The notes beneath the pieces were generated by a model, which saw only the letters and a list, made by a program, of their open reading frames with translations, did not search any database and was not told where the DNA came from. A stretch of DNA of 64,000 nt, from the NCBI GenBank assembly GCA_048526005.1, contig DBFVEH010000005.1, positions 2,727 through 66,726 of the forward strand. The letters run 5' to 3'. This document shows positions 1 to 47,325 of the stretch, piece by piece. This stretch comes from Eubacteriales bacterium (GTDB lineage Bacteria; Bacillota; Clostridia; Oscillospirales; CAG-272). Position numbers and translations under genes: made by a program. Each line of letters opens with the position of its first letter. Position 1 is the first letter of the stretch.

Positions 1-11
1 ATCAACTTAGG

Positions 12-227
12 ATGTTATGTGAAACTGAGATTACTTTCGAATGTTTTTATACATTAGGTGAAAAATTATACCTTGAAAATAAAATATCAGTAAGCAAGTT
101 TGAGAGTTTTATTAAGTTTTTTTATCATTCAAAATTTAAAGATCATTTAATAATTTTTCAAAAAAATTTTATAAAACAAGGTTTTAATGAAGAAAAAGAT
201 ATAGTTTTAGAAAGATATTTATCTTGA
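12..227 (+). CDS. Small ORF, candidate immunity protein of an upstream off-window toxin module (may extend 5' of the window)
   Basis: The frame is open to the window edge. Its stop TGA directly abuts the ATG of the next toxin cassette (tgaATG at 225-230). AT-rich, no recognisable motif. Confidence 0.3.
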   Translation: MLCETEITFECFYTLGEKLYLENKISVSKFESFIKFFYHSKFKDHLIIFQKNFIKQGFNEEKDIVLERYLS

Positions 228-752
228 ATGACTACTGGCGAGGAAATCATAACGACGCCGACACATCCGTTCTGGGTACCTGAAAAGGGATGGACAGATG
301 CGATACAACTGCGGGCAGGAGACAGGTTACAGCTACTGAACGGCGAGTATGTCATCATAGAGCAGGTACAGCATGAAATCCTTGAAGATCCAGTGACGGT
401 CTATAACTTCGAGGTTGAGGATTTTCATACATACTTTGTTGGTGAAACGAGTGTGTTGGTGCATAATAGGTGTGATTATCAATCACCTCAAGGTGGTGGG
501 GGAATTACTGATCAAGTTAAAATTGGAAATAAAAATATTACATTTGGACATGGTGGACGTCATTTAGCTGGCTCAGGATTATCTGTGCAACAAGTTAATA
601 ATGCGATTGCTAATGATGTAATATCACGGCCTGCTACAAACGGTATTGTTGGTCATGGAACTGTAACGATTGGGAGTGTAAATATTTATTATGATTATTT
701 TACTCGATCAGACAACTTAATACATATTGGTACATATTACATAAAACCTTAA
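228..752 (+). CDS. Orphan polymorphic-toxin C-terminal cassette: C-terminal half of a Hint (PT-HINT) domain plus an approx 90-aa variable toxin tip
   Basis: Hint-domain hallmarks: TTPTHPFWV...GWTDAIQLRAGDRL...VYNFEVEDFHTYFV...VLVHNRC, ending in the HN+Cys splice-like junction. An unrelated Gly/His-rich tail follows. Composition shifts from moderate GC to AT-rich at about nt 470. Confidence 0.7.
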   Translation: MTTGEEIITTPTHPFWVPEKGWTDAIQLRAGDRLQLLNGEYVIIEQVQHEILEDPVTVYNFEVEDFHTYFVGETSVLVHNRCDYQSPQGGGGITDQVKIGNKNITFGHGGRHLAGSGLSVQQVNNAIANDVISRPATNGIVGHGTVTIGSVNIYYDYFTRSDNLIHIGTYYIKP

Positions 753-932
753 TTACAGTCAAATTACTTTGCAAATCTAATTATTGATATTCTTATGTGT
801 TGTATACAGATAAATGGGCTTCAGAATAGATGTCAGTAATTCGATGAATACATGGGGCTCACCGGGGGAAAAAATATTTTTCCGGTTGTTTCTCTCGGTG
901 TGCCCCACTATATAATAATCAGGGAGGCAATT

Positions 933-1289
933 ATGATAAATAATAAAGCATTATCAGAAAATGAGATAAAAATGTTATCTTTCTTTACCGATAAAATTGA
1001 GTGGCAAAGAGATGATATTATTTATCAAATCAACCATGCTGAAATTAGAACGGAGTGTTCGCCTTACTTTTATATTATAAAATTTGTGTATGAAGAAAGC
1101 AGCAACCTGCTTTCTTTAAATTATAAATATGACTTAAGAATACAGATTATCCATGGCGATACAGCGCCAACCGTTATGATTTTGTTTATAAAAGAGGGGC
1201 GGGTGCAAGAATTTGAAGTGTATAATGCAGATTCCAGTAATATAGTTTTTGAAAGACTTTATGAAGGATATATCATAAAAGAATTTTAA
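933..1289 (+). CDS. Candidate cognate immunity protein (118 aa)
   Basis: ATG at 933 is preceded by AGGGAGG (921-927). It is a small cytoplasmic ORF immediately downstream of the toxin tip. The 852 start in the ORF track lacks an RBS. Confidence 0.45.
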   Translation: MINNKALSENEIKMLSFFTDKIEWQRDDIIYQINHAEIRTECSPYFYIIKFVYEESSNLLSLNYKYDLRIQIIHGDTAPTVMILFIKEGRVQEFEVYNADSSNIVFERLYEGYIIKEF

Positions 1290-1432
1290 AAAGAACAGCC
1301 ATAAATCGAACAATATGGAGTGTAAGATGTATTGAATAATACTTTATACTACAATCGCATTTTGGTGTGAAATGGGAAATATCCTAATCCATATTTATAA
1401 ATACCTTCTATCTCTAAATAAAGATAAAGGTA

Positions 1433-1461
1433 TTGACAAAATGTAAATGATTGTGTATAAT
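1433..1461 (+). promoter_or_regulatory. Consensus sigma-A type promoter (TTGACA-17 nt-TATAAT)
   Basis: TTGACA at 1433-1438, 17-nt spacer, TATAAT at 1456-1461. Confidence 0.55.
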
Positions 1462-1550
1462 GTAAAATAATAGAAGCGTGCAAATTTAATGATGATTTCA
1501 CTCCCTTAAATTTCTTGACAGTCAAAATATGAAAGCCTTACAACGGCGAT

Positions 1551-1676
1551 ATGGTGAATGAAATGAAGCAAAGAAAAGAAGCGGATCGTCTACGGAAAAT
1601 ATGGCGTATATGGATGAATAACGCCGGTTTTTTCTCCGCGCTTTTTTGGATATGCGAAGTATCACAAATTGAATAA
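1551..1676 (+). CDS. Possible 41-aa small protein (MVNEMKQRKEADRLRKIWRIWMNNAGFFSALFWICEVSQIE), or a non-coding transcript
   Basis: It is the only ORF between the 1433 promoter and the 1685 terminator, and its stop lies 8 nt before the terminator stem. The RBS is weak (GGTGA before the internal ATG at 1563). Confidence 0.25.
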   Translation: MVNEMKQRKEADRLRKIWRIWMNNAGFFSALFWICEVSQIE

Positions 1677-1684
1677 TAGAGCTT

Positions 1685-1733
1685 AAAGCTCCGGTAATTG
1701 CGTAATATGCAATATGCCGGAGCTTTGTTTATA
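1685..1733 (+). terminator. Rho-independent terminator
   Basis: Perfect 10-bp stem AAAGCTCCGG / CCGGAGCTTT (1685-1694 / 1717-1726) with an inner 5-bp stem in the loop, followed by GTTTATATAT. Confidence 0.6.
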
Positions 1734-1823
1734 TATATATTTCCCCGGCCAGAGCAAAGTTTTCCCAATGCAAACACATCCAGACATCAAAAAACAGGAG
1801 ACATGAAAGGAAAGGTAAGGACT

Positions 1824-2078
1824 ATGAAAAAGCTCAGAAAACTCAGCTTCAGGACACTGGCGGTGATCTTATCGGTACTGATGGTGGTATATCTGCTGCT
1901 GCTGTCGGTATTTGCGAACGAGGCGAATAAAAGCGGTGAAAACAGCGAGGAGAACAACATTTGCCAAGATGCAGAAGCAAAGGCGGCGAAAGCAATTCTT
2001 GCAAATCTTGATGATGAAAGCGATGCAGAGAATACGGATTCTGCTTTCTCCAAAGATGAAAGCGAGGATAAAAAGTGA
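1824..2078 (+). CDS. Small membrane-anchored or secreted acidic protein (84 aa)
   Basis: MKKLRKLSFRTLAVILSVLMVVYLLLLSVFA has an N-terminal hydrophobic segment followed by a D/E/S-rich tail. GGAAAGG lies 8 nt upstream of the ATG at 1824. Confidence 0.4.
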   Translation: MKKLRKLSFRTLAVILSVLMVVYLLLLSVFANEANKSGENSEENNICQDAEAKAAKAILANLDDESDAENTDSAFSKDESEDKK

Positions 2079-2230
2079 AAGGAACATGAGGAAGCGGAAG
2101 CTAAGAGAAAAATAGGCTGATTTTGCCAATAGTATATTTATAACGAAAATAATTATTATTAATTTTGACAAATTTCGCCTTGCGGTTTTGGTAATTTTTT
2201 ACAAAAAATAAAGTTAAATATTAAAATGTC

Positions 2231-2259
2231 TTGACATAGAATTCAATATAATATAAAAT
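2231..2259 (+). promoter_or_regulatory. Candidate promoter of the RiPP operon (TTGACA-17 nt-TAAAAT)
   Basis: TTGACA at 2231-2236 and TAAAAT at 2254-2259, in a very AT-rich intergenic region upstream of the 2333 gene. Confidence 0.4.
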
Positions 2260-2332
2260 AAAAATGTAAAATAAAAACATAAAAAGTATAAATTAGTATA
2301 TTTATAAAATATCAGATAAAAAGGTTAAAATA

Positions 2333-3313
2333 ATGATGAAAATTTTGCCGATAAATATTACTCCGCTTTTGAAAACTTATCAAAATACGGCGCTCCCTCT
2401 TGCAGCGGTGTCTTGTGGAACGCATGAAGAAGACATTGTTAAATATTGTATCAATCATTTTATACAACTCCGATATCATCGTAATCGCAAAATGTTAGAT
2501 TTTTGGCACTCAAGATACTCTGACTGGTACTGTATTGAAGTTCAAAATACATTAAGAAATGATTTTTTTAATATATGTAATCTTTCAATACTGGAAATAA
2601 TTAAAAATGCGATTGATCAAAATTTATATGTATATACGATTGTGAATGAATTTTATATACCGGAAAGAAACAGATATCAAAAAGAGTATTATCCCCACGA
2701 TATTTTGATATACGGCTATAACGAAGATGGAGTAATTGCGTTAGGCTATAATGACCGGTTGGTTTTGTCACCGGTTACAGTTCCTTATTCTATGTTTATA
2801 GAAGCTGTACAGTCTGTTCAGCATTTGTTTTTTATTGATTTTTTTACTTATGCGTCTTACAACGCGTATACGATTAATATGAAACAGATTGAGTGCTATT
2901 TAAAAGATTATATATACTCGGAGAATTCCGATTACAAATATAAGTTCATGAATACGGATAGTATTTGTTCATATGGAATAAATGCTATATTTGAAATGTT
3001 CCATCATGAGAAAACCGAGTTTGAAAGCAATGGAAATTTGGATTTCCGAAATTTTGATTGTTATTATGAACACAAGCGGATGATGCAGCTGCGTATTCAA
3101 AGTGTTGGACAAATTCTTGGTGATGATCAATATAATGTAGAGTATGCCAAAATAAAGAATGATGCATTTATTATTAGAAATCTTGCTTTAAAGGCAAAAA
3201 AGTTGAAGGAATTAAAAATAATAGAAGATATAGAAAACCGGATAAAAAACAATGTAGAGCAAGAAATAGTGTTGCTGTCAGAGCTTTTATTGAAAATATC
3301 ACAAAATATATAA
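2333..3313 (+). CDS. 326-aa hypothetical protein, first gene of the RiPP operon; possible papain-like (C39-like/BtrH_N-like) Cys-His enzyme
   Basis: Long AT-rich ORF with no signal peptide. It has SCGTHEEDIV (Cys28 at the start of a predicted helix) and YPHDILIYGYNEDGVIALGYND (His122 followed by a hydrophobic strand + GY[ND]). That is the pattern of papain-fold peptidases/acyltransferases. The functional call is tentative. Confidence 0.5.
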   Translation: MMKILPINITPLLKTYQNTALPLAAVSCGTHEEDIVKYCINHFIQLRYHRNRKMLDFWHSRYSDWYCIEVQNTLRNDFFNICNLSILEIIKNAIDQNLYVYTIVNEFYIPERNRYQKEYYPHDILIYGYNEDGVIALGYNDRLVLSPVTVPYSMFIEAVQSVQHLFFIDFFTYASYNAYTINMKQIECYLKDYIYSENSDYKYKFMNTDSICSYGINAIFEMFHHEKTEFESNGNLDFRNFDCYYEHKRMMQLRIQSVGQILGDDQYNVEYAKIKNDAFIIRNLALKAKKLKELKIIEDIENRIKNNVEQEIVLLSELLLKISQNI

Positions 3314-3328
3314 TCTAATTTTTTTGTT

Positions 3329-3523
3329 AATAACAATAGGAAGTCTTAAATCTTAAATAAAGAAAGGAGGTGAAATCATGAAACTTGTTAAAAATGTGAA
3401 GAAAATCCAGAAAGTTAAACTGTTTAGTTATCCGGAATTCGGTTGCAATGTTTGCTGCAACTAAATCTGTATAAACATATACATTATAATTTATAATTAA
3501 AAAATAGGCTTCCTATTGTTATT
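3329..3523. repeat. 15-bp perfect inverted repeat bracketing the precursor gene
   Basis: AATAACAATAGGAAG at 3329-3343 and its exact reverse complement CTTCCTATTGTTATT at 3509-3523. The downstream arm also takes part in a local 6-bp hairpin (AATAGG ctt CCTATT, 3503-3517). Confidence 0.85.
3378..3464 (+). CDS. RiPP precursor peptide, 28 aa: MKLVKNVKKIQKVKLFSYPEFGCNVCCN (absent from the ORF track)
   Basis: Translated by hand. Strong RBS AAAGGAGG lies 7-8 nt upstream of the ATG at 3378. The leader is Lys-rich and the C-terminus has three Cys (GCNVCCN). It sits immediately upstream of the ACP-like and radical-SAM/SPASM genes. Confidence 0.7.
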   Translation: MKLVKNVKKIQKVKLFSYPEFGCNVCCN

Positions 3524-3575
3524 TTATATTGAACTGAAAAGTAATATATAGTAAATGTGTTGATGGGGAATGTGT

Positions 3576-3830
3576 ATGGAAAATAAAAGAAGTGAAATCG
3601 AATTACAATTAAAACAGATAATGAATGAATCTGGAGTTGAAATGGATTTGAGCAATCCAAATGAAGATTTAAAATTGGATTCTTTACATTATATATCCAT
3701 TATCTGTGAAATTGAAACGGTGTTTGATATCGAAATTCCTGATGAGTTTTTGGGGGAGAATGCTTTATCCAGTTTTAATGATTTTGTGCAATTGATTTGC
3801 AGTGCAAAAGGAGAAAAATATGTCGTATAA
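3576..3830 (+). CDS. Acyl-carrier-protein-like protein (84 aa)
   Basis: LKLDSLHYISIICEIETVFDIEIPDEF contains the DSL phosphopantetheine-attachment-type motif and has the layout of helix II/III of ACPs. GGGGA lies upstream of the ATG at 3576. The 3' end overlaps the radical-SAM start by 11 nt. Confidence 0.7.
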   Translation: MENKRSEIELQLKQIMNESGVEMDLSNPNEDLKLDSLHYISIICEIETVFDIEIPDEFLGENALSSFNDFVQLICSAKGEKYVV

Positions 3831-5166
3831 GAAGTCTGCCTACATAGTAAAAGCATTTAATAAAGATGGGGAATTGATTATAAAAAATACGCTTACGCAA
3901 AAAATATTGAAAGCTCATCCTGAACATATTTCCGATGTAGAAAATGCGTTGAACCGAAGTTACGAAGGGGTTGAAATTTTAGAAGGTATACCAGAAAAAT
4001 TATATCAAAATGGATTTATTATTGAAGGGAATGTAGATGAAGATTTAATTGTAGACTATACATTTAATCAATATTCTTATGGAAGTAATATCTTAGAGTT
4101 GACTGTATTGCCAACGAATGCCTGTAATTTTGATTGTGTATATTGTTACCAAAAAGAACCTTATTTTTGTATGACGGATCATACTGTAGACAATCTTATT
4201 AAATTTATTGAAAAACATATAAATGAGTATTCTGGATTGTTGATTTCATGGTTCGGGGGCGAGCCGTTGCTTGCCAAAAAGATTATCATTCAAGTGATGG
4301 ACCGGGTTAGAGATATTTGCAGAAAAAATAAAAAACCGTTTTATTCAAGTATTACTACAAACGGTTATGAGTTGGATTTATCTACATTTGAAAGCTTAGT
4401 TGCCAATCATGTTAGATTTTTTCAAATAACAGTTGATGGCCCCAAAGATATACATAATCGTCAACGTCCTCATAAAACAAAACCGGATTCGTTTGAGACG
4501 ATTATGAGAAATTTGACTGATATCAAGCGGACAATGACAAAACATAGATTTATTATTGCTGTTCGCGTGAATGTTTCCTCGGCGCTTAGGTCTTATCTGA
4601 ACGAGTTTATAGAATTTTTATATACACAATTTGGGAATGACAAGCATTTTACAATTGTATGGGAGTTTATCAGGGATTGGGGAGGAGATAAAATAGAAAA
4701 TAATAAGGATCTTATGATGGATCATAAATTATCAAATCAATGGTTAGATACTTTATCTAATAAAGGTTTTGAAATCAATAAAGGTTTTGCTCGAAATAAT
4801 ATATCGGAATCGCTTTGCACCGCTTCTAAGAAAAATGGATTTGTTATTAATCATGACGGCGGAGTTTATAAGTGTGCAATGGTAGTTGAAAATGAAGAAA
4901 TGAAAGCGATTAATAGAATAGGGTATATTACTTCTGATGGAGATATGTCATTAGATCTATCTAAAATGGTAAAATGGTTAGGGCGAGATCCTGTAGATAA
5001 AGAGTGTGTGAAATGTCAGCATTATCCAGAGTGTATGGGGGTGAGTTGTCCGTTATCAACACGTATTTTAAAGAATCCGAAGCATTGCAGCGAAACATTT
5101 ATAGATGATTATGAAATGATATTAAGAAATGTTGACGCAATCAATAATATAGAGTACGTAGTGTAG
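3820..5166 (+). CDS. Radical SAM / SPASM-domain peptide-modifying enzyme
   Basis: CNFDCVYC (CxxxCxxC) after an approx 100-aa N-terminal extension that may be a peptide-binding/RRE-like region. GGEPLL motif present. The C-terminal Cys pattern C-x18-C ... CVKCQHYPECMGVSC ... C is typical of SPASM auxiliary clusters. AAAGGAG RBS before the ATG at 3820. Confidence 0.9.
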   Translation: MSYKKSAYIVKAFNKDGELIIKNTLTQKILKAHPEHISDVENALNRSYEGVEILEGIPEKLYQNGFIIEGNVDEDLIVDYTFNQYSYGSNILELTVLPTNACNFDCVYCYQKEPYFCMTDHTVDNLIKFIEKHINEYSGLLISWFGGEPLLAKKIIIQVMDRVRDICRKNKKPFYSSITTNGYELDLSTFESLVANHVRFFQITVDGPKDIHNRQRPHKTKPDSFETIMRNLTDIKRTMTKHRFIIAVRVNVSSALRSYLNEFIEFLYTQFGNDKHFTIVWEFIRDWGGDKIENNKDLMMDHKLSNQWLDTLSNKGFEINKGFARNNISESLCTASKKNGFVINHDGGVYKCAMVVENEEMKAINRIGYITSDGDMSLDLSKMVKWLGRDPVDKECVKCQHYPECMGVSCPLSTRILKNPKHCSETFIDDYEMILRNVDAINNIEYVV

Positions 5167-5183
5167 ACGGAGGTTACATTGTT

Positions 5184-7013
5184 TTGGAAAATCTTACAAT
5201 TGCTATTATTGACAGCGGAGTAGATAAAATGGACCATTACCGAGGAATATCTATATATTTAGATGATAATACTGGTTCGTATAAAATTTGCGACGATTTC
5301 AATGATCAAAATGGACATGGAACCATTGTTGCTAATATTATAGAATCTCATATTCAATGTGCAGATTTGTTTATTGTAAAGATATTTGGAGATGAAGAAG
5401 AAATAGAAACCGAAAAACTTATCTTTGCTTTGGATTATTTAGCATGTGAAATTCATCCCCAATTGATACATTTAAGTATGGGCGTTTCATTTTGTGATAG
5501 AATTGGGGATTTAAAAGTAATATGCGAAAATTTGGCGAGAGAGGGTACTATCATTATTTCTGCATACGATAATGATGGGTCGCTATCATATCCTGCTGCA
5601 TTTTCATCGGTCATAGGAGTTGAAAGTTCCTCCAAAATTAGAAAAACTACGGAATATTTCTTTTTGCAGGAATCACCAATTAATATTGCGGCAATCGGCG
5701 TAGCACAGAGATTGAAAGGCAAAGAGGATCGATACTTTGATGTTGTAGGTTCAAGCTTTGCTGCGCCATATATAACCGCTATTATCGCAAATATGCTTCA
5801 AAAAGAACAGACCATGCTGTCAATAAAAGAAGTCCTTTTGAAATTACAAGAAAATGCAAAGGAAGTATATACTTATTCGAGAAATTCTCCCATTGAGGGG
5901 TCATTTCCCATTAAATGTGCGATTGTTTTACCATATAATAAAGAAATCAATACTTTGGTTCGTTTTAAAGACGAATTGGATTTTGAATTATTTGGCGTTT
6001 ATGATTTAAAGTTTTTGAATAATATTGGTAAAGAAATTATATTAGAGCAGAAAAGTGTTAAAATTGAGCCGATTGATAAAATTCCGTGGACGGAAGCTTT
6101 TGATACGGTAGTATTGGGACATTTAGAAGAGTTGAACTCTATTTCACACCGAGATTATACAGAAAAAATTGTAAATTGCTGTATTAAATACCGTAAAAAT
6201 CTTTATTCTTTTGACCAATTAAATACGGAGCAGCAAATTCGATTTAAAAATGCTAATCTGAAATTTTTCACGCCAACGATAACAAAAAAGAATGTTCCAT
6301 ATAATCAAGAGGGAAAATTGCGTCAAATTGCGAAGCCCATTTTATGCGTAGCCGGAACATCATCAAAACAAGGAAAATTCAGCCTTCAAATGCGGTTAAA
6401 GAATTCAATGAAAAAGCAAGTTCGCGTTGGAATGCTATCAACAGAGCCTTCAGGATATTTACTTGGAGCAGATGTTGTTTTTCCTGTGGGATATAATTCT
6501 ACTGTTTCCCTTGAAAATGGAGATCAATATATCGCTTCCATTAACGCTGCCATGGGAATGATTGAGGATAAAAATGTTGATCTTATCATTACCGGGCTGC
6601 AATCTCAGACGATTCCAATGAAATTGTGTAATCTTCGAGATATGGTCCTTTGCAATCATTATTGTTTGCTTGGCATTAATCCAGATGTTGTGGTTTTGGT
6701 CGTTAATGTTTTTGACGATTTTGACTATATTAAGAGAACAATTCATTATTTGGAAAATATTATTGTGTGTGATGTCATCTCTATCGTTGTATTTCCAATA
6801 ATGCGAACATTCAAATGGAATACTTTGGGAGATTTATCTGTTCGTTATAACGAAGATGTTTTGCAGGACTTTAAAGAAAGATTGGGCAGTTTTTTAGACA
6901 AACCGATTTTTGTTCTGGACAATGACAAGGACATGGACGCATTGGTTTCTATATGTTTTGGCTATTTTTTGAAGGAAGAAAAAACAATAATGGAGAATTA
7001 TGATGAACAATAG
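5184..7013 (+). CDS. Fusion protein: N-terminal subtilisin-like (S8) serine peptidase + approx 370-aa C-terminal domain of unknown function
   Basis: Asp (IAIIDSGVD), His (NGHGTIVA) and Ser (GSSFAAPYITA) triad motifs are all within the first approx 200 aa. There is no signal peptide. The C-terminal part has a P-loop-like CVAGTSSKQGKFS motif. TTG start at 5184 with GGAGG upstream. Confidence 0.8.
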   Translation: MENLTIAIIDSGVDKMDHYRGISIYLDDNTGSYKICDDFNDQNGHGTIVANIIESHIQCADLFIVKIFGDEEEIETEKLIFALDYLACEIHPQLIHLSMGVSFCDRIGDLKVICENLAREGTIIISAYDNDGSLSYPAAFSSVIGVESSSKIRKTTEYFFLQESPINIAAIGVAQRLKGKEDRYFDVVGSSFAAPYITAIIANMLQKEQTMLSIKEVLLKLQENAKEVYTYSRNSPIEGSFPIKCAIVLPYNKEINTLVRFKDELDFELFGVYDLKFLNNIGKEIILEQKSVKIEPIDKIPWTEAFDTVVLGHLEELNSISHRDYTEKIVNCCIKYRKNLYSFDQLNTEQQIRFKNANLKFFTPTITKKNVPYNQEGKLRQIAKPILCVAGTSSKQGKFSLQMRLKNSMKKQVRVGMLSTEPSGYLLGADVVFPVGYNSTVSLENGDQYIASINAAMGMIEDKNVDLIITGLQSQTIPMKLCNLRDMVLCNHYCLLGINPDVVVLVVNVFDDFDYIKRTIHYLENIIVCDVISIVVFPIMRTFKWNTLGDLSVRYNEDVLQDFKERLGSFLDKPIFVLDNDKDMDALVSICFGYFLKEEKTIMENYDEQ

Positions 7014-8838
7014 AAAAAAGCAACAAAAAGCGTCACATTCTCTTGCGGACAACATTGGATATATATATAAATTACAATGGAAACATAGCCCTCTTTCCTT
7101 GGTATTTCTTGTCCTCACGATACCGGTTTCAATTGGAATTTCCTTTTTGGGAATATATTTGCCAAAGATAGTAGTATCACAGGTAATGAACTATGAGGAT
7201 CTTTACAGTGCACTTTGGCCGATTGTCGTTATTGGGCTTGCGATTTTGGTGTTAACGCTCTTTGAAAAATTAATATCTACAATGAGCTCCGCTTTTTTAT
7301 CAAAATTTAGAGATGCACTTGAAAATATGAAAAACAAAAAATGCCTTAACACAGATTATGAGAATCTTGAATCGCCAAAATTTAGAGTTTTAATGGGACG
7401 GGCAAATGAAGCATTATGGGGCTCCAATATGGGTTCCACGGTAGAACGGATGAGTTCTGGCAGCATTGCTATGATTACAAGCATATTAAATGGGGTTTTA
7501 TTTGGAGCCATATTGACATTTGCAAATCCAATTCTTATTGTGGTATTAATAGCAATTCCGGCTGTTCATTACTATTCACTGAAATGGGTTCAAAAATTTC
7601 AGTATCATTCAAAAGAATTTACTGCACCGCTTGATAAAAAGCTTTGGTATCTTGCGCGAAATGCAAGCCATTATGATGCTGCCAAAGATATTCGCATATA
7701 TAATATGAAAGATTGGCTCCTCAATATGTACCATATGCTGTCGAAAGAAAGACTTTCGTGGGATGTCAAAGTATTCAGAAGACAATTTTTTATCAGTCTT
7801 TTAGATGGTTTTCTTATTTTAATTCGAGATGGCATAGCATACTTTGTTTTAATTATGATGGTGATAAACAATGAAATTGCGATTGATGATTTTGTTTTGT
7901 ATTTTTCCTCTGTAGGGGCTTTTACAGGAACGCTTAGTTCTATTATCAATCAGTTTGCCTCTTTAAATGCAACCAGTCTTATTACTTGTGATTTAAGAGA
8001 TTTTCTGGATTACCCCGAAAAAGAAAATAGCTCAGAAACGGAAGAAAACTATGATTTAAACTCTGTTCATGAAATTAAAGTCAAAAATTTATTTTATTCC
8101 TATCCAGGCGCAGAAAAACCAACCTTATCCAATTTAAACTGTACGATTAAACCGGGAGAAAAAATTGCAATTGTCGGATTGAACGGCGCAGGCAAAACGA
8201 CATTTATAAAATTGCTGACAGGACTGTATACGCCAACATCCGGGAATATTTTGCTGGATGAAATTTCTATTAGCCATTATGAAAAACAGGATTATTATTC
8301 TATGTTTTCTGTGGTTTTTCAAGATCATAAGCTAATGCCGATTTCAATTGTTGAAACCGTTGCATGTACGGAGGCACATCTTGCCAATAGAAATCGAGTA
8401 ATTGAGTGTTTGCAAAAGGCTGAGTTATATGATAAAATTTTAAAATTACCAAATGGGATTGATACACTGATCAATCGCCAAATCAATGAAAATGGCATTG
8501 AACTTTCTGGAGGCGAATATCAAAAATTACTGTTAGCAAGAGCCCTTTATAAAAATTCGTCCATTTTGATTTTGGATGAACCTACAGCCGCAATAGATCC
8601 TATTTCGGAGAGTATTCTTTATAATAAATATAGCGATTTGTTTAAAAATAAAACAGCTATTTTTATTTCACATCGATTAGCTTCGACTCAATTCTGCGAT
8701 CGAATTTTCTATATGCAAAGCGGACAAATTTTAGAAGTAGGCACACATGACGAATTGCTCGCACTAAATGGTGAGTATAAAAGGCTTTATGATGTTCAGA
8801 GTCAATATTACCGTTCAGATGGGGGAGATGCCAAGTGA
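7000..8838 (+). CDS. ABC exporter, fused permease/ATPase subunit (no C39 peptidase domain)
   Basis: N-terminal six-TM-type region. Walker A GLNGAGKTT, signature LSGGEYQK, Walker B ILILDEP. Overlaps the upstream gene by 14 nt. Confidence 0.9.
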   Translation: MMNNRKKQQKASHSLADNIGYIYKLQWKHSPLSLVFLVLTIPVSIGISFLGIYLPKIVVSQVMNYEDLYSALWPIVVIGLAILVLTLFEKLISTMSSAFLSKFRDALENMKNKKCLNTDYENLESPKFRVLMGRANEALWGSNMGSTVERMSSGSIAMITSILNGVLFGAILTFANPILIVVLIAIPAVHYYSLKWVQKFQYHSKEFTAPLDKKLWYLARNASHYDAAKDIRIYNMKDWLLNMYHMLSKERLSWDVKVFRRQFFISLLDGFLILIRDGIAYFVLIMMVINNEIAIDDFVLYFSSVGAFTGTLSSIINQFASLNATSLITCDLRDFLDYPEKENSSETEENYDLNSVHEIKVKNLFYSYPGAEKPTLSNLNCTIKPGEKIAIVGLNGAGKTTFIKLLTGLYTPTSGNILLDEISISHYEKQDYYSMFSVVFQDHKLMPISIVETVACTEAHLANRNRVIECLQKAELYDKILKLPNGIDTLINRQINENGIELSGGEYQKLLLARALYKNSSILILDEPTAAIDPISESILYNKYSDLFKNKTAIFISHRLASTQFCDRIFYMQSGQILEVGTHDELLALNGEYKRLYDVQSQYYRSDGGDAK

Positions 8839-10643
8839 AAAAACTCATGCAGAATATAAAAGTTCTATTAAGGGGAATTTCATATCTTTTTCAAATTGAA
8901 AAACGGTATGCTATATTACATATCGTGTCTTCTTTGCTTTCTCCGATACAACCATATATCAACATATACATGGTTTCTATCATTTTGAATGAGTTGTCAG
9001 AGCGCCGGGATAAGACAGTGCTTTTAATTTATATAGGAATAACGATTGCTGCAAATTTTATATTTAAAATTGTAATTTCTGCACTAAATATGGCCACAAA
9101 TTATCGTTCTGGACAGTTTTACAAGAATGAAAAAATGTTTTTTGCTCAGAAAGCAATGACAATGGACTTTAAAGATGTAGAGTCTACTGAGATACATGCA
9201 TTGCTTGAAAGAATACAAAACGAAAGCCAAAATGGCTATAATATGTATTATCTTATCAAGTTTTCTGGACAACTTATCAGTAGTATTTCATCGGTGGTTA
9301 CATCTGTATCACTCAGCTTAAACTTAATTATTGATCATAGAATCAATTTGTATGCCAAAATGGGATTATTGTGTTGTGTTGTGCTTGTCATTGTTTTAAC
9401 CTATTATACCACAAAGAAAACGAACAAAAAAACATTAGATATGTATGAATCCTTGATCCCATGCAATGTAAAATACAATTTTTATAATGATTACAACGAG
9501 GATTATAACGTTGGAAAAGACATTAGAATATACAATTTACAGAATTATGTGTTAGGTATTCAAAAACAGCAAATAGATTTTTCTACGAATCTTTTAATAA
9601 AGACAAAAAAAGAAACGTTAAAGTATGTGTTTATCAGTACATTTGTGAATCATTTGCTTAAAATTGGTGTCTATGTTTTTGTATTTTTTGCTTGTATATC
9701 TGGAAGTGTAGGAGTTGGAGATATAACACGTTATGTGAGCTGCATTACCTTGTTGGTTATAACTGCAGGAGAACTGATTTCACAATTCCAGTCCTTGATA
9801 AATAACAACAAATATTTGGAACGCTATTTTCAATATTTTGATATTCCATCCTCGCAAGAACGCAAGGGGGGGATTCCGGTTACAGGAGGAAAACACGAAT
9901 TTGAATTTAAAAATGTGACTTTTCGATATCCTAATACGAAAGTTGATGCTTTGAAGAATATTTCATTTAAAATTCATTCTGGAGAGCGCATTTCAGTGGT
10001 TGGTATGAACGGCAGTGGAAAAACCACAATGATAAAACTTTTGTGCCGCTTATATGAACCGTGTGATGGTGAAATACTGTTAGACGGAATCAACATAAAA
10101 GAATATATCTATAACGATTACATGCGCCTTCTTGGTGTAATTTTTCAAGACTTTAAAATTTTTTCATTTTCGTTAGGCCAAAATATTGTGGTTAGTGATA
10201 ATATGGATCGTCAGTCGATAGAAATTGTATTGAAAAAGGCAGGTCTTGCAACTTTCTTGGAGAAATTGCCATTTGGAATTGAAACGCCCTTATATCGGGA
10301 TTTTGACGAAAGAGGCTTGGAGATTTCTGGGGGAGAGGCGCAAAAAATTGCGTTAGCAAGAGTTTTATATAAAGATGCAGCTATCATGATTTTGGATGAG
10401 CCAACTGCTGCTTTGGATCCCATTTCTGAAAACGATATATATCAACGCTTCAACTCAGTGGTTGAAGATAAGTCTGTTATCTATATTTCACATCGATTAG
10501 CATCTTGTACATTTTGTGATAGAATATTGGTTTTCAGTGAAGGGAATTTGGTTCAGAATGGCACCCATCATGAGTTGGTTAAAAATAAAGATGGAATATA
10601 TTTTAAATTATGGAATGCACAAGCACAGTATTATATAAAATAA
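8835..10643 (+). CDS. ABC exporter, fused permease/ATPase subunit (heterodimer partner)
   Basis: Walker A GMNGSGKTT, signature ISGGEAQK, Walker B IMILDEP. 4-nt GTGA start/stop overlap with the upstream subunit. Confidence 0.9.
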   Translation: MKKLMQNIKVLLRGISYLFQIEKRYAILHIVSSLLSPIQPYINIYMVSIILNELSERRDKTVLLIYIGITIAANFIFKIVISALNMATNYRSGQFYKNEKMFFAQKAMTMDFKDVESTEIHALLERIQNESQNGYNMYYLIKFSGQLISSISSVVTSVSLSLNLIIDHRINLYAKMGLLCCVVLVIVLTYYTTKKTNKKTLDMYESLIPCNVKYNFYNDYNEDYNVGKDIRIYNLQNYVLGIQKQQIDFSTNLLIKTKKETLKYVFISTFVNHLLKIGVYVFVFFACISGSVGVGDITRYVSCITLLVITAGELISQFQSLINNNKYLERYFQYFDIPSSQERKGGIPVTGGKHEFEFKNVTFRYPNTKVDALKNISFKIHSGERISVVGMNGSGKTTMIKLLCRLYEPCDGEILLDGINIKEYIYNDYMRLLGVIFQDFKIFSFSLGQNIVVSDNMDRQSIEIVLKKAGLATFLEKLPFGIETPLYRDFDERGLEISGGEAQKIALARVLYKDAAIMILDEPTAALDPISENDIYQRFNSVVEDKSVIYISHRLASCTFCDRILVFSEGNLVQNGTHHELVKNKDGIYFKLWNAQAQYYIK

Positions 10644-10791
10644 CGAGGGGGTTATTTTATTGCTAATTTTAAATTGTTCGAATCTTTTTTCTAAATTCGT
10701 TCTTGACACGATACTGATACATGCCTTCGCTACTGGATACTAACGCTGTTCAGCAGGAACAAGAGCATATCAGAACACAATGCGTTCGTTC

Positions 10792-10817
10792 AAAACCCTT
10801 GTAATATCAAGGGTTTT
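10792..10817 (+). terminator. Hairpin, possible terminator of the RiPP/ABC operon
   Basis: 10-bp stem AAAACCCTTG / CAAGGGTTTT with a 6-nt loop. The T-run is only the 4 T of the stem. Confidence 0.45.
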
Positions 10818-10854
10818 CGGCGTCGTGAAACTGTGCTTTGAGAATATTATATGT

Positions 10855-10903
10855 TTTGGCTCTAAGCGAAAGGCCGGCGGTTCGAATCCGCCCAGAGACG
10901 CCA
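10855..10903 (+). other. tRNA 3'-half remnant (anticodon-arm 3' side, T-arm, acceptor 3' strand, discriminator G, CCA) without a 5' half
   Basis: GGCGG-TTCGAAT-CCGCC T-arm (10876-10892), then CAGAGAC-G-CCA (10893-10903). The complementary GTCTCTG 5' acceptor strand and a D-arm are absent upstream, where the sequence turns AT-rich. Confidence 0.55.
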
Positions 10904-10907
10904 ATCA

Positions 10908-10951
10908 AATTCCCTGACTCGTAATTTACGGGTTGGGGAATTAATTTTTTT
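10908..10951 (+). terminator. Terminator following the tRNA remnant
   Basis: Stem AATTCCC / GGGAATT (10908-10914 / 10936-10942) followed by AATTTTTTTA. Confidence 0.5.
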
Positions 10952-11155
10952 ATATGTTTTTTGTTTATATTGGTCTGTGTTATTGATAAAACCTTGAAAT
11001 TAGAGAAATTTATATAGAAAAATAAGGAAAAAAGAATTGTTTTGTCGAACGATTTATTAAAAAATTTTGAATTTATGTTGACATTTATATGTTTTTGTTG
11101 TTTACTGTTAATAGTTGACGATTTGAAATTATTAAAGTGAGAAAGGAAGTGGGTT

Positions 11156-11872
11156 ATGAAAATCAAGTTAAAATTATGTGTTGTTTTGTTAATGGTTGCT
11201 TTACTGATTTCGAATTGCGTTATGGGGGTTTTTGCTCACGAAATGTTTGTGAATTCTTCGGGAGTTCCTATTGTCATGACTTTTCAAGATGTAAATACGA
11301 GCGGAGCACCTGCTTTAAGAGTATACTATGGTTATATGCATGATCATGGTCCTTCTATCTATTATAGCAATGCAATTAATGCGATGAATTCATGGAATGG
11401 TATCGGCACAAAGGGAGTGACGGTTTCCATTGAGTCACAAAATCAGATTTTTGGTGGAGGCGGACAAAACATTACGATTAAAACAGATGCGACAGTATGG
11501 GCAAACTATGGTTTAGGAACATCAACATTGGGCATGACTGAATTGATAGATACAAATAATTTAAAGGTAACAACGGTAAATTCTGCAATTAATTCCACAA
11601 GAATAATTAAAACCGCAAATATTTATTTAAATCCTTCTGCAGATGTTTTTAGTTTAGGGACTACCAATCAAACAGTAATTGATAATAGAATACAAAAAAC
11701 GATTGCACATGAAATCGGGCATGCGATGGGACTTGGCCATCCTGATACAACTTACGATATTATTTCAACGGCTACATATTCATTGATGCGGCAGGGCTTT
11801 CCGGATCAGGTGAGAAGCGGGATCGTTCCGCAGAATCACGAAAAATCCGATATATACAACAAATATAAATAA
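11156..11872 (+). CDS. Secreted zinc metalloprotease, metzincin/matrixin-like (M10-type)
   Basis: Signal peptide MKIKLKLCVVLLMVALLISNCVMGVFA. Extended zinc motif HEIGHAMGLGHPD (HExxHxxGxxH). Still AT-rich. Confidence 0.8.
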   Translation: MKIKLKLCVVLLMVALLISNCVMGVFAHEMFVNSSGVPIVMTFQDVNTSGAPALRVYYGYMHDHGPSIYYSNAINAMNSWNGIGTKGVTVSIESQNQIFGGGGQNITIKTDATVWANYGLGTSTLGMTELIDTNNLKVTTVNSAINSTRIIKTANIYLNPSADVFSLGTTNQTVIDNRIQKTIAHEIGHAMGLGHPDTTYDIISTATYSLMRQGFPDQVRSGIVPQNHEKSDIYNKYK

Positions 11873-11887
11873 AGGAGAACGTGCGAT

Positions 11888-12514
11888 ATGAAAAAAATAG
11901 CCATCCTTTTGGTCTGCGCAACGGTTCTTGCCCTTTTGCTCGGCTGCACGGGATGCGGGGAGCAAAAAGCGGCGGAGCGGCTGTCCGATTCCGGAATTGA
12001 CGCACTGCGCACGGAATATCTCCTGATTTCTGAAAGTCAGATGCAGCTGGATTATGCAATGTTTGATCTCGAAACGCGGCTTGAAATCATTCCGATTTTG
12101 GCGGAAATCGAGGTGCTTCAAGCGCTGCCGGATTATACCGTGACGGTGACGCACACGATAAGCGAAACCGAAACCTACACGGAGGAGCTTCTGTTTCATC
12201 AGTTCGAGGTAAAGCTTCATGACGTGTGGATTAACCGTACCGGTGCGGAGCTTCCGGAAACGCTCGTCATCTGCTTTGCGGATATCTTTGCTTCGTCTTA
12301 TCCGGAGCTGGACGTTCATGATCATGCGGTCGTATCCTTGAGCGAATCGCGCGGCTCGCATACCGGTAAATATCATTTTAGCGATGAAACTGCATATTAT
12401 ATGACAGACACCGGTTACCTGCTCTCGGTCTATGAGGAGCGCGGCACACGTCTTTCCGGTCTTTCCAAAAATGCGTTTGAAAGCAGGATTACAGGTCTTT
12501 TGTCCGTAAAATAA
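11888..12514 (+). CDS. Lipoprotein of unknown function
   Basis: MKKIAILLVCATVLALLLGCTGC has a lipobox. This is the first GC-rich gene after the AT-rich region. Confidence 0.7.
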   Translation: MKKIAILLVCATVLALLLGCTGCGEQKAAERLSDSGIDALRTEYLLISESQMQLDYAMFDLETRLEIIPILAEIEVLQALPDYTVTVTHTISETETYTEELLFHQFEVKLHDVWINRTGAELPETLVICFADIFASSYPELDVHDHAVVSLSESRGSHTGKYHFSDETAYYMTDTGYLLSVYEERGTRLSGLSKNAFESRITGLLSVK

Positions 12515-41993: not shown

Positions 41994-42012
41994 GGAATGA
42001 AGTAACCTTTAG

Positions 42013-42201
42013 GGAGGGGCGTACAAAAAATTACGCCATACGACGGCGAGCGTCTTACTTGACAGCGGATGGAGTTTGGAAGATGTGAAAAACTGGCTCG
42101 GCCATGCGGATATAGAGACGACAAGCAATATATATCTGCACTATGGTAGAGACCGAAAAATTTTGCTTGCGGAGGAGCTTGTCGGGATGTTTCATATATG
42201 A
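42013..42201 (+). pseudogene. Tyrosine recombinase, C-terminal approx 60 aa only
   Basis: LRHTTASVLLDSGWSLEDVKNWLGHADIETTSNIYLHYGRDRK carries box II with the catalytic His/Tyr region. The frame opens right after a TAG and lacks the first approx 300 codons. Confidence 0.7.
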
Positions 42202-42451
42202 AAAAAGCCTTGCAAAAACAAGGCTTCGATAAGGATGGTTGAAGAAATCAAGTAAAATCAAGGCTTTGTGGACAGTGACAGACAATGCAATCATCCAAAA
42301 CTGAATAAGTTTACAGAGCAGGGATACCGTTTTCCATGATGGTATCCCTTTTCTGTTGTTTCTGTCCTCATAAACAGGATCATCACGCACGCCGTAGGTA
42401 CAAAAACCTATGGCGTTTTTTTACGCCCATTTTCGGAAAGGAGCGGGATCA

Positions 42452-42637
42452 ATGAAGCTGAATGAAGCGGAAATGAGGATGGCGTATCAGATTGAGGCTA
42501 CCAGCCAGAGCGCCGCCCTGAATGAGATTTACATGACCTGGCGCTATACGCAAGGCCGGGAGACAATGCACACGGAACGTATGCAGGTATTGAAGAATAT
42601 CTTAAAGAATATGCTGCCAAAAAGCAATCATAAATAA
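42452..42637 (+). CDS. Small protein (61 aa), resembles transposon-transfer-assisting family proteins
   Basis: MKLNEAEMRMAYQIEATSQSAALNEIYM... with AAAGGAG RBS. The family resemblance is recalled from memory only. Confidence 0.35.
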   Translation: MKLNEAEMRMAYQIEATSQSAALNEIYMTWRYTQGRETMHTERMQVLKNILKNMLPKSNHK

Positions 42638-42685
42638 ACGCACCGCCGAGAGTAATCGTTTGGTTTATCTCGGCGGTGATTAGCT

Positions 42686-42968
42686 TTAGTGATAAATTAT
42701 CTCGTTCAGTACGATTTTCTCTGCTTCGTGTTTCGCGTTATTCATTTCCTGCGCCCAGCGGAGCGGACCAGTAGTTTTGAGTTCTTCGGTGATGCCGCGC
42801 TCTTTTACCAGCCGGGAGAGGGTGAGGTCAATCTGTCGCTTTGCCTTTTGGTCAGTATTGTAGAAATGCCGATTAAGAGTACCTAACGTAAGAAGCGTAG
42901 TGTAGATTCCTCGATGATGCTACTTGAGGTAATCCAAGCACATCTTTATCATACATCGATAGTGCCAT
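42686..42968 (-). pseudogene. TnpV-like gene, frameshifted/internally deleted
   Basis: C-terminal frame without a start: HRGIYTTLLLTLGTLNRHFYNTDQKAKRQIDLTLSRLVKERGITEELKTTGPLRWAQEMNNAKHEAEKIVLNEIIYH. A separate short N-terminal frame MALSMYDKDVLGLPQ has a GGAAGGAG RBS. Confidence 0.45.
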
Positions 42969-43661
42969 TTTCTCCTTCCACATTCAAGCAAATATTCCTC
43001 GGTACGGTCAATTTCCATTTGCTGTTCAGATCAAAAAGTATCTTAGGAAAGCCTTTGAACCGGGCAATTTATGATGAGGATTCCAGTGAAATGATTGAAA
43101 TCATGGCAGGTGATTTCCTGATTGTTTATGTTCCGTCAACAAGCGAAAATTATGAAAGTTTGCACCTGAACTCAGCCGAAAATATGAGATGAATTTCTAT
43201 TATCCGCAGAATTTTTTCAAGATAAATGGTGAGATTAAGGCTATTCCGTACCGTCCAAAAAAGGATGATCCGGAAAGATAATGAAAGTCGTGGATACGAC
43301 TTGTCTATTAGTCTTAGCAAGCACTGAATTTGGTATACCAAATTTGCTTTTTAGAGGGCTTTGCGCCCCTAAAACCCCGCCTGTTTTCATGAGGAAGTGA
43401 AGAGAGGATATTGTTCATTTGAATGAGGATAAATTGTGAAATGTGAATGACAAATTCGCTTGCAAGGATGAATACCGAAAGGAATTTATCGGCAATATAA
43501 TTTGCGATATGCAGCTACGGAAAAATCCGCCAATTCTTTGAATTTATCAGAATGATTTTTTAAGAACTGCGCAATTCAATTGTGCGGTCATATTTTATAT
43601 AGTGGAGCATATACGCAATATGGCTGTAAACAAATTCAAAATTACAAAATATGAATTTCTA

Positions 43662-43690
43662 TTGACAATATTTTATAAAAATGTTAAAAT
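43662..43690 (+). promoter_or_regulatory. Promoter (TTGACA-17 nt-TAAAAT)
   Basis: TTGACA at 43662-43667 and TAAAAT at 43685-43690. This places the ORF-track ATG at 43681 upstream of the likely transcription start. Confidence 0.5.
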
Positions 43691-43737
43691 TGATATGTAA
43701 AAATATTGCATTATACAATAAATGGCAAGGTGTTTTT

Positions 43738-45735: not shown

Positions 45736-45755
45736 TGATAGAAAGGAGCATTTTT

Positions 45756-46439: not shown

Positions 46440-46889
46440 CTTTTATTTGTATATTTCGGAGTAAACATTTTAAGATGTTTTGAAAAAATTCCGATTTCAG
46501 CAAAGCCTTGTTGAAATTACATATTTATAATGCCGTGTGTAGAAAGTATTGATGGACATTTGTCTGATTGGTTCCTTTACACGCGGTGTTTTATTATCCT
46601 TGAATTGCATTCATGTTTTGACAGAGTGAATTTGTAAAATGCCGGGGATCAGTAAGATGGCAGTGAGCAGAAAAATAGCAAAATTCAGAAAATGAAAAAT
46701 AATTTTTCAAAATGGTTTACAGAATGCCTGTTTTTTGGGCTATGTAATTGAAAGCATGATTTTTGCACTTTGAAATTTCTTTTAGAATTTCGGAAATGGG
46801 GGTTCAAAACACCGGAAAAAGAGTGATTGGTGAGGAACATATGATTCTCAAAAATTGAATAGACACTCCATAAAAAATAAAAAGCATGA

Positions 46890-47201: not shown

Positions 47202-47267
47202 AATCAAGGAACCGCTGAGATCCCTTGATTTTTCGGGGGAGATGAGCGTAGGTAAATATAGGATGAA

Positions 47268-47298
47268 ATGGTAAGGGACCACAGCGGTCCCATACCAT
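47268..47298. terminator. Bidirectional hairpin between convergent genes
   Basis: GGTAAGGGACC-acagc-GGTCCCATACC, an 11-bp stem with one mismatch, with T-rich flanks on both strands. Confidence 0.5.
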
Positions 47299-47325
47299 TT
47301 ATTGCACGTTTTTAGAAATTTTGCT

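Follow-up and report, generated by a model that had tools for sequence, protein, structure and literature searches.

The window analysed here is a stretch of 64,000 nucleotides (nt) from contig DBFVEH010000005.1 of a Eubacteriales bacterium (assembly GCA_048526005.1), and our subject is a small gene at 3576-3830 on its forward (+) strand, whose 84-amino-acid (aa) product resembles acyl carrier proteins (ACPs). As an earlier note on this DNA had claimed, the gene belongs to an operon for a ribosomally made, post-translationally modified peptide (RiPP) and is packed against the gene of a radical S-adenosylmethionine (SAM) enzyme, which it overlaps by 11 nt. The operon has the following features.

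2231-2259, + strand: match to a sigma-70-like promoter, TTGACA-17-TAAAAT (11/12), upstream of ORF1
2333-3313, + strand: open reading frame 1 (ORF1), 326 aa, BtrH_N/DUF6005-type similarity
3378-3464, + strand: precursor peptide, 28 aa, MKLVKNVKKIQKVKLFSYPEFGCNVCCN
3576-3830, + strand: ACP-like carrier protein, 84 aa, putative phosphopantetheine site Ser36 in LDSLHY
3820-5166, + strand: radical SAM/SPASM peptide maturase, 448 aa, Pfam Radical_SAM and Fer4_12
5184-5900, + strand: S8 subtilisin-like protease domain of a fusion protein, Pfam Peptidase_S8, NCBIfam QhpE at 106 bits
5901-7013, + strand: predicted DUF1611/DgcN-like module of two domains (Rossmann-like and P-loop), joined to the S8 domain, TIGR04066-like
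7000-8838, + strand: ABC exporter subunit 1 (permease/ATPase), 14-nt overlap with the preceding gene
8835-10643, + strand: ABC exporter subunit 2 (permease/ATPase), 4-nt overlap with the preceding gene
10908-10952, + strand: terminator-like hairpin with a 16-bp stem, followed by a T-run

The match at 2231-2259 is probably the operon promoter; it is based on consensus similarity only, and such sites are no more numerous in the region than in shuffled sequences. The hairpin at 10908 probably marks the operon end. The S8 and DUF1611 parts are encoded by a single gene (5184-7013, + strand, 609 aa). When the operon's seven proteins were scanned against Pfam and NCBIfam, no match to a phosphopantetheinyl transferase (PPTase), an adenylating enzyme or a ketosynthase was obtained, and the absence of such genes that the earlier note had reported thus holds across all seven genes from the promoter-like site (2231) to the terminator-like hairpin (10908).

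The ACP reading frame runs from the ATG at 3576 to the TAA at 3828-3830, and an alternative ATG at 3570 would give a product of 86 aa. The 84-aa start is backed by the orthologue P0002 from locus L005, which has the N-terminus MENRR. An identical locus was found on four metagenome contigs, where independent gene calls gave an 84/86-aa gene and a 448-aa gene with the 11-nt overlap. The radical SAM gene starts in frame at ATG 3820 with a GGAG sequence at 3810-3813, and the overlap covers 3820-3830. Eight homologues of the ACP share 50-98% identity, and dN/dS (the ratio of nonsynonymous to synonymous substitution rates, Nei-Gojobori) is ∼0.10 between the window protein and its L005 orthologue. 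The ACP gene is therefore real and under purifying selection.

To place the 84-aa protein, we compared it with family profiles and with solved structures. The Pfam PP-binding model (PF00550) matched residues 13-73 at 22.6 bits, above its gathering cut-off of 20.8, and 12 NCBIfam ACP models matched with E values of 1e-7 to 2e-4, none of them reaching its equivalog cut-off. A phmmer search of the PDB retrieved 101 chains at E≤1, which are ACPs and related carriers (D-alanyl carrier protein, AcpM); in these alignments D35-S36-L37 of the window protein falls on the DSL motif of the solved ACPs, which places Ser36 on their phosphopantetheine serine. The region in question (residues 32-58) reads LKLDSLHYISIICEIETVFDIEIPDEF. 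Even at E≤10, the Pfam scan of the ACP gave solely PP-binding and PP-binding_2, with no similarity to PqqD or to a RiPP recognition element (RRE). Judged by its sequence, the 84-aa protein is a member of the ACP superfamily, and its co-linear alignment to solved ACPs leads us to infer the four-helix-bundle fold of ACPs. The description of an ACP-like product with a serine in the DSL position thus stood up.

Two closer identities were considered and rejected. The protein is not the housekeeping AcpP of fatty acid synthase (FAS): it scored 30.6 bits with TIGR00517 (cut-off 70.45) and 31.8 bits with PRK00982 (cut-off 71), and its neighbours are RiPP genes, not fab genes. Membership in TIGR04069 was rejected as well, with 23.9 bits against a cut-off of 70 for the window protein and 29.3 bits for the orthologue in locus L001.

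The distribution of the gene set was followed by scanning one genome per GTDB species with an alignment of the fusion protein. At least 261 S8-DUF1611 loci were confirmed and 80 of them were fetched; with the metagenome loci they make up the 85 non-redundant loci studied, all sampled through S8-DUF1611 or through close relatives of the ACP. The S8-DUF1611 loci are mostly from Bacillota, many from gut Clostridia, Lachnospiraceae and Paenibacillus. A hidden Markov model (HMM) of the ACP family detected a same-strand ACP-like ORF in 68/85 loci, and a more sensitive pass recovered three further ACP loci, masked earlier by long ORF extensions or acidic tails. A radical SAM gene is present in 66/85 loci and adjoins the ACP gene in every case (66/66). 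The two genes are mostly separated by -32 to +60 nt. The order radical SAM, ACP, S8-DUF1611 was seen in 51 of the 85 loci, and the order of the window (ACP, radical SAM, S8-DUF1611) in five. The earlier note had taken the overlap to imply 1:1 coupled synthesis; the ACP stop codon does lie 11 nt inside the radical SAM ORF, but a fixed coupling does not stand, as gene orders vary and the two genes of L001 are separated by a 1-nt gap. What is conserved is the adjacency of the ACP and radical SAM genes, not a fixed coupled orientation.

Six loci, of which four are complete Paenibacillus loci, carry no radical SAM gene and have the ACP paired with S8-DUF1611. Because these six loci keep the ACP, it does not serve the radical SAM enzyme alone. 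A separate metagenome sampling with a narrow ACP alignment gave six loci: the two long ones show the same cassette (radical SAM, S8-DUF1611, ORF1-like protein and ABC pair), L097 breaks off shortly past the start of its radical SAM gene, and unrelated ACPs account for the remaining three. We concluded that the ACP is a fixed part of a widespread, uncharacterised RiPP cassette, of a kind that has already been catalogued and is functionally unexplained.

The serine of the putative attachment site is strictly conserved. Across nine ACP orthologues L-x-L-D-S-L-H-Y-I-S-I-I-C-E-I-E is invariant. Among 71 distinct cassette ACPs the serine is kept in all (71/71), the residue before it being Asp (65), Glu (4) or Asn (2); 70/71 have Gly20 and 71/71 have the Glu 11 residues past the serine. 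Apart from the closest orthologues, these proteins share 14-42% identity with the window protein. A HMMER search with the narrow alignment against 1.84 billion representative proteins yielded 1218 proteins at E≤1e-3, and the serine was retained in 157 of the 159 best domains. Of 66 cassette ACPs scanned, 40 reached Pfam PP-binding at E≤1e-3, 48 matched an NCBIfam ACP model and 16 matched TIGR04069 (best E 3e-7, never near the cut-off). The earlier note had said that its reading would fall if profile searches showed no ACP relationship or if the serine varied among orthologues and could be mutated without effect; the profiles found the relationship, and the serine is invariant in orthologues and in distant relatives.

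Some relatives carry additional segments. Proteins of 265-272 aa (L096 4676-5494, L098 6415-7233; P0138, P0140 and P0141) are among the closest relatives of the window ACP and have a ∼190-aa helical-repeat domain, not assigned to a family, N-terminal to an ACP domain in which LDSLHYISIICEIE is kept; a second radical SAM gene lies upstream in these loci. The ACP-like proteins at L067 9371-9799 and L079 3936-4454 end in long poly-Glu/Asp tails (EEYEEEYEE...DEEEDEE), and an initial search with a size limit missed them for this reason.

The precursor gene is preceded by a strong Shine-Dalgarno sequence (AAGGAGGTG), and its 28-aa product combines a Lys-rich leader, which bears a (V/I)xL(Y/F)...E motif, with a short core rich in Cys. 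Precursors homologous to it occur in 72 loci, with a common leader M-K-K-x-L-x-K-P-x-K-K...V-x-L-Y-x-x-E ahead of a core that contains Cys; the residues at the C-terminal end of the cores vary and are not conserved. No family was matched when ten precursors were scanned against NCBIfam. A hairpin (AUAGG-CUU-CCUAU) followed by a U-rich stretch is located 3′ of the precursor gene at 3504-3530. It was tried as a leaky attenuator that would set the precursor:enzyme ratio and was rejected, its folding being no better than that of shuffled sequences (z = -0.69).

The radical SAM protein has a 93-residue N-terminal extension, followed by CxxxCxxC at about residues 98-105. Its best NCBIfam matches are TIGR04463, Clo7bot, CefB and PapB-type maturases, all below cut-off. 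Its PDB matches were to anSME, beginning at residue 94, and to CteB, spanning residues 38-241; the stretch 38-93 is aligned there with CteB 46-101, a region that we take to lie in the RRE of CteB. A Pfam scan of the N-terminal 95 residues gave no RRE or PqqD match, which leaves the CteB alignment as the sole support for an RRE in this protein. In the S8 domain, the catalytic triad Asp10/His45/Ser191 is invariant in 30 homologous fusion proteins, and the domain is probably a QhpE-like leader peptidase.

The C-terminal 370 residues of the S8 protein match NCBIfam TIGR04066 (E 1e-11) and Pfam DUF1611_C weakly; with PF07755 the window protein scored 16.6 bits, below the cut-off of 25. A homologue search retrieved 144 clusters, most of which carry PF07755 in precomputed annotation. 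An AlphaFold2 model of the module, built from a 65-sequence alignment, reached a predicted local distance difference test (pLDDT) score of 92.2. The top PDB matches of this model in Foldseek were 2G0T and 2OBN (DUF1611) and 7XRJ ('N-acetyltransferase DgcN'), with probability 1.0, E values of 1e-9 to 1e-12 and template modelling (TM) scores up to 0.69; SIMIBI P-loop NTPases ranked next. The GT....GK loop (G391-T392...G397-K398) is invariant in the 30 fusion proteins. In its predicted structure, the S8 protein's C-terminal half adopts the DUF1611/DgcN fold.

ORF1 is more divergent. The window protein scored 23.3 bits with Pfam DUF6005 (cut-off 25), and its 87%-identical orthologue P0010 scored 30.2 bits. 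Among 45 ORF1 members, the Pfam families matched were BtrH_N (10, below threshold) and DUF6005 (2), and no other; one distant homologue is named 'Butirosin biosynthesis protein H' in UniRef. DUF6005 is the AsbE family (PMC11317620), and the BtrH_N and DUF6005/AsbE families are carrier-protein-dependent papain-like ligases (PMC11317620, PMC12865890). AsbE, BtrH, CtaG and CcbD transfer carrier-bound acyl groups to amines, and CtaG-class ligases couple carrier-bound peptide units (PMC12865890). An iterated HMM found the ORF1 family in 64/92 loci, including the 363-aa protein of L001-type loci. A null result in pairwise BLASTP had suggested that ORF1 is unrelated to the L001-type loci, and this was overturned by the family HMM, which recovered the L001 protein and at least 60 others.

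Within the 45 members His122 is conserved in 41, Gly128 in 45 and Asp/Asn130 in 43. CtaG, AsbE and BtrH carry a nucleophilic Cys (PMC12865890). A conserved Cys was sought across the 45 ORF1 members and none was found; Cys occurs at the expected N-terminal position in 10/45, and Cys28 of the window protein lies in a two-residue insertion found in the window and L005 only. No link was apparent between loss of the Cys and presence of the ACP. The AlphaFold2 model of ORF1 (8-sequence alignment) was poor, with a pLDDT of 58.7 and confidence only in the helical C-terminal part. Its top seven Foldseek matches were all to CcbD, an amide synthase that depends on a peptidyl carrier protein (PCP), and included the complex of CcbD with a PCP; the scores were weak (E ∼5e-3, TM ∼0.3) and, given the low confidence of the model, the matches are taken as a hint only. 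Searches of the PDB with the ORF1 sequence and the family profile gave no meaningful match, and CcbD is not detectable by sequence. From its profile matches, ORF1 is likely to be distantly related to the papain-like amide ligases that depend on carrier proteins (BtrH/AsbE/CtaG class). At L079 1393-3933 an 846-aa ORF fuses an ORF1-like domain (residues 20-363) to a radical SAM maturase (residues 453-813), which provides a Rosetta-stone link between the two proteins.

In two loci the cassette lies within a larger supercluster (L009 2088-16127, from Bacillus cereus GCA_025515965.1, and L013, from Paenibacillus polysaccharolyticus BL9). The cassette part comprises a precursor (MSLMKKLKKPVKANKNVVLYGEGNYKCQ), the ACP, S8-DUF1611, the radical SAM protein, two BtrH_N-like proteins and a transglutaminase-like protein. 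Beside it are a type II FAS/polyketide synthase (PKS) set (a second ACP, two ketosynthases, an ApeI-like dehydratase and two short-chain dehydrogenases/reductases), an Sfp-type PPTase and an AMP-binding-PCP protein, and the arrangement is conserved in the two genera. The joining of the cassette to a FAS/PKS set, a PPTase and an AMP-binding-PCP protein in these loci supports an acyl cargo.

We consider it probable that the window protein acts as a phosphopantetheinylated carrier. A phosphopantetheinylated protein is favoured because the serine and the ACP signature are strictly conserved over very divergent sequences, and the missing PPTase in the operon is uninformative, because the housekeeping AcpS could serve. 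Of the two alternatives offered in the earlier note, a true carrier or a degenerate ACP fold re-used as a chaperone or RRE surrogate, the former is thus preferred; the note had overlooked the likely partners, namely the DUF1611/DgcN-like domain and the BtrH/AsbE-like ORF1. That holo-ACP donates an acyl-type group to the leader-cleaved, thioether-bridged peptide is put forward more tentatively, as a leading possibility rather than an expectation.

In the proposed scheme, a housekeeping or distant PPTase would probably convert the ACP to its holo form on Ser36, and the ACP would then be the thiotemplate of a tailoring module in the conserved cassette. The radical SAM enzyme, acting through its own N-terminal leader-binding domain, would form thioether-type cross-links in the Cys-rich core, after which the S8 domain would cut the leader and expose an N-terminal amine. 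An acyl or aminoacyl thioester on the pantetheine arm would be passed to the peptide, most simply to the new amine, and the ABC pair would export the product. The transfer could be catalysed by the DgcN-like domain and/or the papain-like ORF1, one of which may instead load the ACP, for example from acyl-CoA. DgcN uses acetyl-CoA. Amide formation from thioester donors is suggested because DgcN is an N-acetyltransferase by its PDB title and because AsbE, BtrH, CtaG and CcbD acylate amines. The fusion of the DgcN-like module to the S8 domain suggests that leader cleavage is coupled to modification of the freed N-terminus. The holo form, the nature of the cargo, its acceptor and the sequence of the steps are all inferred in this scheme.

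Several observations weigh against this proposal. The window operon has neither a PPTase nor a loading enzyme (adenylation or acyltransferase), and acyl-chain biosynthesis genes were found in just 2 of the ∼85 loci. About 10 S8-DUF1611 loci have neither the radical SAM gene nor the ACP gene, and some of these retain ORF1; since these loci keep the DUF1611 and ORF1 proteins without the ACP, the two proteins are not strictly dependent on it. The ORF1 family does not show the Cys-His-Asp triad, most of its Pfam matches stay under the threshold and its structure was modelled poorly. The co-occurrence figures hold for loci sampled in the way described above, and a partnership of the ACP with the radical SAM enzyme would explain just as well that the radical SAM gene is in every case accompanied by a closely adjoining ACP gene.

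Such a partnership is the best surviving alternative, and we regard it as unlikely. The ACP would present a second substrate to the radical SAM/SPASM enzyme (an acyl chain or the pantetheine thiol) or would be a structural or allosteric subunit, in a manner that recalls the stabilisation of LYR-protein complexes by acyl-ACP. It would account for the position of the ACP gene directly beside the radical SAM gene in 66/66 loci, mostly overlapping or within 60 nt, and for the 11-nt overlap in the window; the sister Ccp system (described below) likewise pairs a radical SAM enzyme with an ACP-related protein, and the L079 fusion ties a thioester-type protein to the maturase. The invariant serine is compatible with a pantetheine-dependent role in this setting too. 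However, six loci hold an ACP but lack a radical SAM gene, the literature searched contained no SPASM peptide maturase known to require a carrier protein, and PapB, the closest characterised enzyme, was assayed in vitro with peptide alone in the publications retrieved.

Somewhat less probable again is that the ACP is a non-catalytic adaptor (a leader chaperone, RRE surrogate or docking subunit) that needs no pantetheine cargo. The lack of a PPTase or loading enzyme in the operon, the lack of a Pfam RRE/PqqD match in the first 95 residues of the radical SAM protein and the divergence of the family, with just 40/66 members reaching Pfam PP-binding at E≤1e-3, would all be expected of an adaptor. 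An unused attachment site should, however, lose its serine neutrally, and the serine is invariant in (D/E)S(L/I), with the ACP-typical Gly and Glu kept, at identities to the window protein of mostly 20-35%. Nor is an RRE surrogate, the role considered in the earlier note, needed: the radical SAM protein has its own 93-residue extension, co-linear with the CteB region that we presume to be the RRE, and the ACP itself has no PqqD/RRE similarity. The neighbours from thioester-using enzyme families and the Sfp-type PPTase in the L009/L013 superclusters also argue against an adaptor.

We give still less credence to a true RiPP/thiotemplate hybrid, in which the core peptide, or a unit that the radical SAM enzyme joins covalently to it, would be held as a thioester on the ACP, and cross-linking, cleavage and ligation or cyclisation would take place while it is tethered. 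Finally, a peptidyl or aminoacyl carrier, for which the P-loop DUF1611 module would activate a carboxylate, either of a free amino acid or at the C-terminus of the peptide, and the ACP would carry it as a thioester until the papain-like protein macrocyclises, ligates or extends it, appears to us the least probable reading: the SIMIBI-type P-loop of the DUF1611 C-domain is related to ATP-dependent carboxylate activators such as dethiobiotin synthetase and its GT....GK is invariant, CtaG-class ligases do join carrier-bound peptide units (PMC12865890), and the cores are very short and autoinducer-like with Agr-type genes flanking 10-13 loci, but the cores have no conserved C-terminal residues, and the one DUF1611 protein in the PDB that has been characterised carries the annotation of an acetyltransferase rather than that of a ligase.

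The Agr-type genes (AgrB, a LytTR response regulator and a GHKL histidine kinase) flank ∼10-13 loci, for example at L028 5127-7886. Together with cores of 5-10 residues, they hint that some of the products are signals. In the Paenibacillus locus L007, which has the ACP and no radical SAM gene, a protein of a ∼270-aa family without a Pfam match is encoded 3′ of S8-DUF1611 (9850-10638); the family occurs in seven loci in all and could replace the radical SAM maturase in L007.

The surroundings of the operon in the window were also examined. The operon sits in an island of 29-36% GC, and the surrounding DNA has 50-58% GC. A second low-GC block (36-39%) is found at 42-48 kb and adjoins the only tRNA gene of the window (tRNA-Pro, 49016-49091, minus strand). 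By their composition, both blocks (1-12000 and 42000-48000) look like horizontally acquired segments. Directly 5′ of the operon are a PT-HINT polymorphic-toxin C-terminal cassette (228-752) and small unannotated ORFs (12-227 and 852-1289), with the corresponding region at 3511-5569 in the locus copy L092, and an RHS/YD-repeat toxin is in the equivalent position in L001-type loci (L001 1-5327). With these PT-HINT and RHS neighbours, the RiPP cassette adjoins polymorphic-toxin loci in both the window-type and the L001-type loci. Gene calls on the metagenome copies place a further 84-aa gene (1824-2078) between the toxin cassette and ORF1; its product has a hydrophobic segment at the N-terminus and ends in an acidic tail, and it may belong to the operon, perhaps as an immunity protein. 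Just past the operon terminator, at 11156-11872, lies the gene for a 238-aa protein with a signal-peptide-like N-terminus and the zincin motif HEIGHAMGLGH; it has weak Reprolysin/M10/M66 matches, and its position is conserved in all locus copies (L092-L095).

RiPP maturation usually relies on leader-guided enzymes that act on a free peptide, and carrier thioester chemistry is a hallmark of non-ribosomal peptide and polyketide synthesis. The cassette ACP is accompanied by two proteins whose only known relatives form amides from thioester donors, which suggests that the tailoring of the cassette's ribosomal peptides involves thioester chemistry on a carrier protein. With a loaded ACP, the clusters would make acylated or thiotemplate-tailored, thioether-bridged mini-peptides by an undescribed route; with short autoinducer-like products and Agr-type neighbours, such peptides may be signals or bacteriocins of gut bacteria. 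Should the hybrid reading be true, the carrier logic of non-ribosomal peptide synthetases would operate in ribosomal peptide maturation across several hundred Bacillota species. Literature searches for DUF1611 with radical SAM, BtrH with RiPP and ACP with ranthipeptide returned nothing describing the cassette.

The cassette was compared with known systems that share parts of it. The pairing of a small stand-alone carrier with a partner protein recalls CtaG with CtaH/CtaE (closthioamide), AsbE with AsbD (petrobactin), BtrH with BtrI (butirosin) and CcbD with CcbZ-PCP (celesticetin); the partner in the cassette, the ∼330-aa ORF1 protein, may resemble these ligases in layout, with a putative alpha/beta region at the N-terminus and helices towards the C-terminus. 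All four examples are non-ribosomal and have dedicated loading enzymes, whereas a ribosomal acceptor is proposed for the cassette and no loader is present; the catalytic Cys conserved in the CtaG/AsbE/BtrH class is not conserved in the ORF1 family. The likeness to DgcN and other DUF1611 structures (7XRJ, 2OBN, 2G0T) lies in the two-domain fold and the conserved P-loop-like GT....GK, at just 11-16% identity. DgcN is a stand-alone enzyme of D-glutamate catabolism, whereas the module studied here forms one protein with an S8 protease, within a RiPP cassette that includes an ACP.

A radical SAM/SPASM enzyme acting on a Cys-containing peptide is common to the cassette and to QhpC/QhpD/QhpE, PapB, CteB and the SCIFF maturase, and leader removal by a QhpE-like subtilisin is probably shared with the Qhp system. 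We know of no carrier protein, DUF1611 domain or BtrH-like protein in the Qhp and ranthipeptide/sactipeptide systems. In the goadvionins and lipolanthines, which are PKS/FAS-RiPP hybrids, an ACP-carried acyl group is attached to the N-terminus of a ribosomal peptide; to our knowledge, a GNAT-type transferase and chain-building enzymes are always present in such systems. The L009/L013 superclusters, with their ketosynthase, ketoreductase, dehydratase and PPTase genes, resemble this logic. Most cassette loci, including the window, differ from it in lacking chain-building genes, and the candidate transferases are of other folds.

The closest relative is the Ccp/CLI_3235 system, which comprises a TIGR04065 precursor, TIGR04066, the TIGR04068 radical SAM protein CcpM and the TIGR04069 'acyl carrier-related protein'. 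In the SacP23 cluster of Paenibacillus polymyxa, the Ccp set is found together with a subtilisin and an ABC transporter (PMC10731318). The part list of the Ccp system (Cys-rich precursor, radical SAM/SPASM, ACP-related, DUF1611-like and subtilisin-like proteins, ABC exporter) matches that of the window. The window proteins are nevertheless far below the Ccp cut-offs (ACP 23.9/70, DUF1611 44/200 and radical SAM 79/500 bits), and there is no precursor match. The protease and the DUF1611 module are fused in the window, the precursor is of another family, and the BtrH/AsbE-like protein is an extra core member. By these scores, the window cassette is a sister variant of Ccp and not a member. In the literature searched, no function is assigned to the ACP-related protein of either the Ccp system or the window-type cassette. 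An ACP in a RiPP operon is thus not unprecedented, the sister family TIGR04069, which the earlier note had missed, being already catalogued in NCBIfam; if the proposed carrier function is true, it would explain the role of the long-catalogued 'acyl carrier-related' proteins of the Ccp systems as well.

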